A stretch of DNA of 9,238 bases, taken from a virus. Taxonomy: Monodnaviria; Loebvirae; Hofneiviricota; Faserviricetes; Tubulavirales. The notes beneath the pieces are model-generated. The model ran no database searches and was not told the origin of the DNA. It was given only the letters and a program-made list of their open reading frames with translations. The stretch's first letter is position 1. Each line of letters opens with the position of its first letter. This document shows, one piece after another, positions 4,633 through 4,728 of this stretch. The stretch lies in the IMG/VR virus record IMGVR_UViG_2660238346_000023. One strand, 5' to 3'. Made by a program: the position numbers and the translations under genes.

Positions 4633-4728
4633 CAGTGCGCACAATGACGTTATGTATAAAAAGGCCGCTGCGGTGGAGAGTATCGCAGCGGCCTTTTCAA
4701 CATAACGCGTGTCACATTATGCGCACTG
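4633..4728. other. dif-like imperfect palindrome, putative XerCD-dependent attP (forked-hairpin type)
   Basis: Left arm cAGTGCGCAcAATGacgTTATGTaTAAAA (4633..4661) and right arm (4698..4728, reverse complement cAGTGCGCAtAATGtgacacgcGTTATGTtgAAAA) are inverted copies. Each resembles E. coli dif GGTGCGCATAA-TGTATA-TTATGTTAAAT (XerC arm, central region, XerD arm). They flank a perfect hairpin. Confidence 0.6.
4658..4697. terminator. Bidirectional rho-independent terminator-like hairpin at the centre of the attP palindrome
   Basis: Perfect 10-bp stem GGCCGCTGCG (4663..4672) / CGCAGCGGCC (4684..4693) with an 11-nt loop, flanked by AAAAA (4658..4662) and TTTT (4694..4697). Lies downstream of pIV on the minus strand and of the regulator on the plus strand. 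Confidence 0.55.

Follow-up and report, generated by a model that had tools for sequence, protein, structure and literature searches.

A probable CTXphi-type attP hairpin in an integrase-less filamentous prophage at the dif site of Escherichia coli

The DNA stretch analysed here, hereafter called the window, is the IMG/VR virus record IMGVR_UViG_2660238346_000023 (9,238 nt, Tubulavirales), a filamentous (inovirus) prophage of Escherichia coli with a unit length of about 8.72 kb. It contains, at 4634-4727, an inverted pair of sequences similar to the chromosomal dif site, which is in all likelihood the attP of this integrase-less phage and probably works like the attP(+) of the Vibrio cholerae phage CTXphi (Val et al. 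2005, reviewed in PMC3089051 and PMC4246890). The core genes are all on the minus strand. They include a replication initiator of the Phage_GPA family (Rep, 2045-4144, identified with Pfam), the secretin pIV (4781-5989, Pfam Secretin), the 3' end of which is 54 nt from the attP element, the assembly ATPase pI/Zot (6776-7978, Pfam Zot and protein comparison) and an open reading frame (ORF) of 119 amino acids (7995-8354, minus strand) at the slot where filamentous phages encode g6p. The gene g3p is present twice, as an N-terminal part running off the left end of the window (1-953, minus strand) and as a C-terminal part at the right (8354-9142, minus strand), and a repeat search within the window found the segment 13-284 again at 8730-9001. 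The window thus extends over one unit and about 0.5 kb of a second, non-identical copy of g3p.

The dif site of E. coli consists of an XerC arm, GGTGCGCATAA, a central region, TGTATA, and an XerD arm, TTATGTTAAAT. Site A of the attP element, on the minus strand, has an XerC arm, AGTGCGCATAA (4727-4717), which matches that of dif in 10 of 11 positions, a spacer of 11 nt, TGTGACACGCG (4716-4706), and an XerD-like arm, TTATGTTGAAA (4705-4695), with 9 of 11 matches. The spacer starts with TGT, the first three bases of the dif central region, and the rest of it forms a variable bulge. Site B, on the plus strand, has an XerC-like arm, AGTGCGCACAA (4634-4644, 9 of 11 matches), a spacer of only 5 nt, TGACG (4645-4649), which reads CGTCA on the phage (+) strand, and an XerD-like arm, TTATGTATAAA (4650-4660, 8 of 11 matches), the complement of which is the bottom strand of the folded XerD arm. 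The repeat search returned the outer arms as two segments of 15 nt (4632-4646 and 4715-4729) with 93% complementarity, and GTGCGCAYAATG is present twice in the window, both times within the element. A hairpin with a perfect stem of 14 bp (4659-4672 and 4684-4697) and a variable loop of 11 nt lies between the two sites. A preliminary description of the window, made from its sequence, had reported two inverted dif-like sites at 4633-4728 around a perfect 10-bp hairpin; both sites could be read as described and the hairpin is indeed perfect, but its stem is longer than was stated, the 10 bp being only its GC-rich core, GGCCGCTGCG.

Sites A and B were the only matches in the window when it was scanned for an XerC arm with at most 2 mismatches, a spacer of 5-12 nt and an XerD arm with at most 3 mismatches. 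One such site was found in 15 of 300 Markov shuffles and two sites in none of them, and the alignment of the arms with the host dif, suggested earlier as a check, therefore gave a match beyond chance.

The earlier statement that no integrase is encoded was borne out. Comparison of 20 ORFs with Pfam, including all four complete ORFs of at least 180 amino acids, identified no recombinase domain, the only families found being Phage_GPA, Secretin and Zot. In the most similar complete genome, NZ_CM128593.1, the prophage array is flanked by host genes, and no integrase is thus located just outside the prophage either.

NZ_CM128593.1 was the best match of the window among 5,426 complete E. coli genomes (98.7% identity over 133-9042). 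It contains two tandem prophage copies between the ydeQ-ydeT fimbrial region and hipA, exactly the position at which strain MG1655 has an empty dif. An exact-protein look-up of the 119-amino-acid ORF gave 1,629 blocks of the sequence collection. Ten places in seven assemblies, one of them a metagenome contig, were read, namely the NZ_CM128593.1 locus and nine more in six other assemblies; all were at the yde-hipA dif locus, mostly as arrays of at least two copies. About 90 of the 5,426 genomes match the attP-pIV region of the window, at a median of two places per genome, and further E. coli genomes carry related attP variants. Integration at the host dif, as had been predicted, is thus seen in near-identical prophages beside hipA, the arrays of which adjoin dif with hybrid attL and attR sites.

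Many of the arrays consist of identical copies, and mixed arrays also exist, in which adjacent copies carry different attP variants, immunity genes or g3p alleles (e.g. loci L024 and L025, and the g3p alleles of the window). The two g3p copies of the window are different alleles, with 86% identity over 272 nt (13-284 compared with 8730-9001), 4 and 8 copies, respectively, of a 39-nt Gly/Ser repeat (132-266 and 8849-9139) and divergent C-terminal domains, which indicates that the array of the window is mixed and not a duplication artefact. The preliminary description had referred to the prophage as a tandem array, which is clearly the case in the related genomes, whereas the window itself comprises one unit and part of a second copy.

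All E. coli arrays that were read through both ends share one junction pattern. On the hipA side, the host flank ttggtttatRtt and the host arm GGTGCGCATAA are followed by the phage spacer TGTGACA(C/T)GCG. Between copies, the phage flank caccacaacRtc is followed by the phage arm AGTGCGCATAA and the phage spacer; the attP copy of the window is a junction of this kind, which is also the type of the attP of the replicative form. On the far side, the phage flank and the phage arm AGTGCGCATAA are followed by TGTATA-TTATGTTAAAT and then by the host flank, so that dif is regenerated at this end of the array. The XerC arm thus travels with its 5' flank, in the G-form of the host at the hipA side and in the A-form of the phage at the inter-copy and far junctions. 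This G/A difference at position 1 of the arm, together with the differing spacers, confines the crossover to the stretch from the XerC arm to the fourth base of the central region. Cleavage by XerC, and with it the crossover, is predicted to occur at the 3' border of the Site A XerC arm, between 4717 and 4716.

Two other modes of exchange were considered and rejected on the basis of the junctions. An exchange on the XerD side only would leave the host central region at the hipA side, which was not seen. In integration of the TLC type, the first exchange is made by XerD with the element-encoded XafT and the element has no proper XerD arm, whereas here the host central region stays with the host XerD arm; nor did the 20 scanned ORFs have any Pfam hit, beyond GPA, Secretin and Zot, that could indicate a TLC-type activator. 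In two genomes (L019 at 13544 and L023 at 13637), the regenerated far-end dif has the central region TGCATA instead of TGTATA, which is either a host dif polymorphism or a change after integration.

The same phage was also found in a plasmid. The Citrobacter youngae plasmid pCY-CTXM-15 (OV141394.1), a 363-kb conjugative plasmid of the IncHI1B/IncFIB type, contains two tandem phage copies (L058, 11299-28889), the attP region of which is 99.2% identical to that of the window. The target was a dif-like site, AGTACGCATAA-TGTACG-TTATGTTAAAT, and the junctions read AGTACGCATAA followed by TGTGACACGCG at one end and AGTGCGCATAA followed by TGTACG-TTATGTTAAAT at the other, so that the plasmid arm AGTACGCATAA stays with its 5' flank, as the host arm does in the chromosome. 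The predicted empty site, i.e. the two plasmid flanks joined, was used as a query and was covered to at least 80% in 103 plasmids, with up to 100% coverage at 99.4% identity among the matches listed. In Klebsiella quasipneumoniae pD120-1, AGTACGCATAA-TGTACG-TTATGTTAAAT is uninterrupted (L060, 1799-1826), which verifies the empty site. Comparison of the plasmid junctions with this site narrows the crossover to the interval from position 5 of the XerC arm through position 3 of the central region, which contains the known XerC cleavage point. The bases beside this point can pair with either target, TGT being invariant in the phage and shared with TGTATA of dif and TGTACG of the plasmid, and the bottom-strand CA being invariant as well. 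Integration at dif through the attP element is almost certainly mediated by Xer.

Plasmids also carry an isolated segment of 69 nt with about 84% identity to Site B plus the hairpin. In the E. coli plasmid pLD22-1-135kb (L002, 4001-4069), it consists of GGTTCGCATAA-TGACG-TTATGCTAAAG and then the same stem, with a degenerate Site A half, and it is located directly after a gene of the STM4504/CBY_0614 family, beside an IS200C fragment. The segment was found in about 480 other plasmids of E. coli, Klebsiella and Salmonella, most of them conjugative. It resembles Site B of the type found in the prophage of E. coli UTI89, described below, and the adjacent genes are unrelated. Derivation from an accessory gene of a CUS-1-like phage was considered and rejected, as the STM4504-family neighbour has no similarity to the ORF beside attP in UTI89.

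The attP element was folded in silico as single-stranded DNA (ssDNA). The minus strand gave -40.2 kcal/mol (z = -10.9) and the plus strand -36.8 kcal/mol (z = -8.65), and no shuffled sequence was as stable in either case. When the minus strand is folded, the XerC arms pair over 12 bp, with one T.G wobble, and flanking bases pair as well; next comes TGACAC as a one-sided bulge of 6 nt, followed by GCG-CGT pairs, the XerD arms and the hairpin. The Site B spacer, as read on the phage (+) strand, pairs with Site A through its CA (with TG) and its CGT (with GCG). The secondary-structure prediction called for in the preliminary description thus gave a forked hairpin with duplex arms. The arms pair and the centre is partly unpaired, as that description had proposed, but the expected bubble of acg opposite tgacacgcg is replaced by the one-sided TGACAC bulge.

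From E. coli genomes, IMG/VR contigs and metagenome contigs, 17 distinct attP variants were gathered, all of which gave the same forked fold in silico. The strand with Site A at its 5' side folded better in every variant, by 2.1 kcal/mol on average. On the phage (+) strand, the C at 4642, in the XerC-like arm of Site B, accounts for the T.G wobble with Site A; on the other strand it gives a C.A mismatch. This wobble in the XerC stem (pair 8-86, UG) was present in 17 of the 17 variants. One-sided substitutions at four stem pairs likewise keep pairing on the Site A strand, mostly as G.T, and give C.A on the other strand. Apart from the XerD-like arm of Site A, which is nearly invariant, the arms do not vary, nor do the stem, the TGT that follows the arm of Site A and the CA that precedes that of Site B. 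Variation is concentrated in the bulge (columns 14-19) and the loop; the duplex spacer of Site A is 10-11 bp throughout. Such a pattern fits a constraint on both binding and structure.

The coding strand, here defined by the Rep gene, was assumed to be the packaged strand, as is the rule for Ff and CTX phages. In every lineage and backbone checked, the core genes have Site A on their coding strand. The non-canonical duplex spacers (11 and 5 bp, compared with 6 in dif), the position of Site A on the coding strand, the better fold of that strand and the bias of the wobbles are the reasons for regarding the folded (+) strand as the probable substrate of integration.

The proposed mechanism is as follows. 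The packaged (+) strand would correspond to the minus strand of the window, the coding strand of Rep, pIV, pI and g3p, on which Site A and the complement of Site B would anneal around the 14-bp hairpin. The result would be an XerC arm of 11 bp with one T.G wobble, extended by two paired bases (TG/CA), followed by the 6-nt one-sided bulge, three base pairs and the XerD arm. Host XerC and XerD would bind this folded site and synapse it with dif, and XerC would exchange one strand pair where the XerC arm meets the central region, the swap being stabilised by the shared TGT of the phage top strand and CA of the phage bottom strand. Catalysis would be by XerC only, and replication would turn the resulting pseudo-Holliday junction into the integrated prophage. 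The product would have a duplex, inactive Site A/Site B pair on the hipA side and a regenerated dif, AGTGCGCATAA-TGTATA-TTATGTTAAAT, on the far side, which would still serve the host and could take up further integrations, resulting in tandem and sometimes mixed arrays. Such arrays would in turn allow phage production by rolling-circle replication.

The reading of the element as a CTXphi-style XerCD attP, proposed in the preliminary description, is supported by the junctions, the location at dif and the anatomy of the sites, with folded ssDNA as the likely substrate. Several points weigh against it. The support is wholly comparative. The search pattern fixed the outer 12 bp of the arms when the variants were gathered, which makes the invariance of the arms partly circular, and covariation among the 17 variants was uninformative, as none of the pairs had both partners changed and 69 of 500 shuffles scored as high. 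The packaged strand was assigned by the rule valid for Ff and CTX phages. The bottom-strand spacer has 5 nt, compared with 7 nt in CTXphi, and E. coli XerCD would have to accept this geometry. Finally, recombination of a duplex Site A by XerC, followed by replication, would give identical junctions.

This last route would be that of the VGJphi type, in which only Site A of the double-stranded replicative form would recombine with dif, by XerC and then replication, leaving Site B and the hairpin irrelevant. We consider it unlikely. It would produce exactly the attL and attR junctions observed, and Site A has the corresponding XerC arm (10 of 11 matches) and the first three spacer bases of dif; moreover, fs2 and VFJ, the deposited phages closest to this backbone, have been placed in the VGJ class (PMC4246890). 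The duplex spacer of Site A, however, has 11 bp (10-11 in the variants), whereas that of dif has 6 bp (PMC3089051). The route also leaves the conserved inverted Site B, the T.G wobble, the strand bias and the constant position of Site A on the coding strand without a reason. VGJ-type attP is a single duplex dif-like site with a spacer of about 7 bp, whereas the window has two inverted sites with spacers of 11 and 5 bp.

As to the arrays, their growth could be due for the most part to homologous recombination or unequal crossing-over, either among the copies themselves or with a replicative form that enters the cell, and not to repeated Xer integration at the regenerated dif. For Ypfphi, a preference of superinfecting genomes for insertion between resident copies has been reported, with homologous recombination suggested as the route (PMC4266046); the many arrays of identical copies would also agree with it. 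The mixed arrays, such as L024/L025 and that of the window with its two g3p alleles, are on the other hand easier to explain by successive integrations, and homologous recombination would concern the growth of arrays only, not the first integration. As the main source of the arrays it appears quite improbable.

It is very improbable that the inverted repeat acts mainly in cis, as a bidirectional intrinsic terminator downstream of gene IV, as a signal for packaging or as an origin of the complementary strand, with the dif-like arms being secondary. In favour of such a role, the hairpin has a GC-rich 14-bp stem with T-runs on both strands (TTTTT on the minus and TTTT on the plus strand), located 84 nt past the pIV stop and just after a plus-strand ORF (4458-4628), and Ff phages have a packaging hairpin directly after gene IV. 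Against it, both halves of dif are reproduced in the arms, within which the prophage junctions place the crossover, and for an origin of the complementary strand the 339-bp repeats at 6028-6762 are the better choice. The hairpin appears terminator-like by eye; a consensus terminator scan, limited to loops of 3-8 nt, did not flag it, its loop having 11 nt. A cis-acting role could also be a second function in addition to that of attP, and the hairpin might double as a gene IV terminator or packaging signal.

The CTXphi-like attP is not confined to the backbone of the window phage. The same attP family was found with at least four types of pI/Zot and at least four types of Rep (L003, L004, L006, L009, L012, L015, L016 and L059), the Rep types including GPA, two kinds that are Rep_trans-like or gene II/X-like, and others. 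The prophage at L009 is a mosaic of a window-type Rep (94.6% identical) and IKe-like pI and pIV. Horizontal exchange of lysogeny modules has been described among Vibrio inoviruses (PMC12715192). We tentatively suggest the possibility that the attP hairpin is a portable cassette, exchanged among unrelated enterobacterial inoviruses, which permits insertion in any dif-like site beyond chromosomal dif, including the multimer-resolution site of the widespread conjugative megaplasmids of the IncHI1B/IncFIB type, and that the roughly 480 plasmid remnants are scars of such insertions. If this is true, a phage inserted in such a megaplasmid could be transferred by conjugation, with no need of its receptor; the tandem copies in the Xer site of pCY-CTXM-15, a CTX-M-15 conjugative megaplasmid, are one documented case of a phage so placed. 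Of the findings made here, the plasmid insertion, the occurrence of the cassette on several backbones and the plasmid remnants most deserve to be followed up.

E. coli JNE25-005 has a 9,613-bp record annotated as a plasmid (NZ_AP045060.1), with a zot gene of the L012 type at 92.7% identity. It is probably the episomal replicative form of a related inovirus, present beside chromosomal copies in the same strain.

Some further features of the window were noted. Between pIV and pI, at 6028-6762, there are about 2.2 tandem copies of a 339-bp unit with 97% identity. A segment of about 57-75 nt in each unit is 92-97% identical to small ColE1-type plasmids, in which it lies about 130 nt downstream of rop; we take this plasmid region to hold the PriA (n') primosome assembly site, and if this holds the repeats are a candidate complementary-strand origin. 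The fold of one unit was weakly non-random (z = -1.9). At the 5' end of Rep, within 4071-4150, GTGCAATTGTGCA(A/C)A is present as two direct copies, overlapped by a palindrome (4117-4150). These elements face divergent small ORFs at 4193-4628 and look like operators of an immunity and replication switch; in related prophages, different helix-turn-helix (HTH) genes take the place of this region. The last 104 nt of the window (9135-9238) match the 5' end of chromosomal yfeN, a gene of the OmpK/Tsx family, at 98% identity and are fused out of frame to the Gly/Ser repeat region of g3p. This junction was found in no complete E. coli genome and could be either a genuine rearrangement or the result of a chimeric assembly of the source.

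No known RNA family was identified when the window was scanned with Rfam, and neither the window nor its attP had a DNA match among 50,697 deposited phage records. At the protein level, the nearest deposited relatives were fs2, VFJ and CTX, all of them distant (Rep and pI about 30-33% identical to those of fs2 and VFJ, with Rep at about 30%). Current pipelines label the genes of such prophages as 'GspD', 'Zot' or 'hypothetical', and the exact coordinates of attL, attR and attP can now be used in annotating them.

Of the systems known, CTXphi is the one which the attP element of the window most closely parallels in its organization. CTXphi attP1 reads AGTGCGTATTA-TGTGGCGCGGCA-TTATGTTGAGG and attP2 AATGCGTATTA-TACGCCA-TTATGTTACGG, with spacers of 12 and 7 nt (PMC3089051). 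Both elements are inverted pairs of dif-like sites, the spacers of which are non-canonical (11 and 5 nt in the window), attP1 corresponding to Site A, with a long spacer that starts with TGTG and the XerD arm TTATGTTGA in both, and attP2 to Site B. Both also give a forked hairpin with an unpaired centre, predicted in silico in the present case, and serve phages that have no integrase, with a crossover on the XerC side, dif regenerated at one end and tandem arrays. The Rep proteins are distantly related, that of the window having 31% identity to an RstA-like protein in a CTXphi RS2 record. The hosts and the dif arms differ, however (CGCATAA here, CGTATTA in Vibrio), and the CTXphi element is longer, about 150 nt with a connector of 90 nt, compared with about 94 nt and a connector of 34 nt here. 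The connector of the present element is a perfect, terminator-like hairpin.

Integrase-less filamentous prophages at dif, often in tandem, also include CUS-1phi of E. coli O18:K1:H7 and Ypfphi of Yersinia pestis. The dif-resident prophage of E. coli UTI89 (O18:K1:H7), presumably CUS-1phi in view of its serotype, has an attP clearly homologous to that of the window, with the same arms, stem and bottom spacer CGTCA, a Site B arm that reads GGTTCGCACAA and a Site A spacer that reads TGTACGACTCG. Its backbone is different, with a Rep of the gene II/X family, a DUF2523 protein and a Zot of 341 amino acids, and pIV is the only protein with detectable similarity to the window phage (43% amino acid identity). 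Membership of the window phage in the lineage of CUS-1phi and Ypfphi, which are reported to be 99% identical in nucleotide sequence, was therefore rejected. The 15 members listed in each of the 90% clusters of three window proteins were all from E. coli or Shigella and none from Yersinia, and neither a scan for the inverted XerC-arm pattern nor a Zot-based locus search gave a match in 185,579 species-representative genomes. CUS-1phi and Ypfphi have been assigned a CTX-type attP (PMC3089051, PMC4246890, PMC4266046) and are placed with the CTXphi relatives in the class table of integrative mobile elements exploiting Xer (IMEX) (PMC4246890). Ypfphi has been described as having its XerC/XerD sites in an inverted pair, regenerating dif and forming arrays of two to four copies (PMC4266046), and the dif of Y. 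pestis is identical to that of E. coli (PMC2731167).

Phages of the VGJphi type (VGJphi, fs2, VSK and others) also use host XerCD, with a first exchange by XerC that is completed by replication (PMC4246890), and the Rep and pI of the window are closest to those of fs2 and VFJ (about 30-33%). They have one duplex dif-like site and can excise, whereas the window has two inverted sites with non-canonical duplex spacers. The UPphi phages (UPphi901; PMC7307601) are inoviruses of E. coli and other enterobacteria in tandem at dif, with an IKe/I2-2-like backbone unlike that of the window phage; 'a copy of the dif site' is described for them, without mention of an inverted pair, attP or hairpin (PMC7307601). 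The IKe-like prophage of strain MS20655 (L003), which has the same attP family and the same junction logic as the window, may belong to the UPphi group. The CTX-type attP is already in the literature for E. coli phages, in CUS-1phi, and the mechanism is not new; the window presents it on a backbone, with a GPA-type Rep and fs2/VFJ-like assembly genes, not previously described with it. The ssDNA type of Xer hijacking, first worked out for the cholera-toxin phage, would appear to be common in E. coli.

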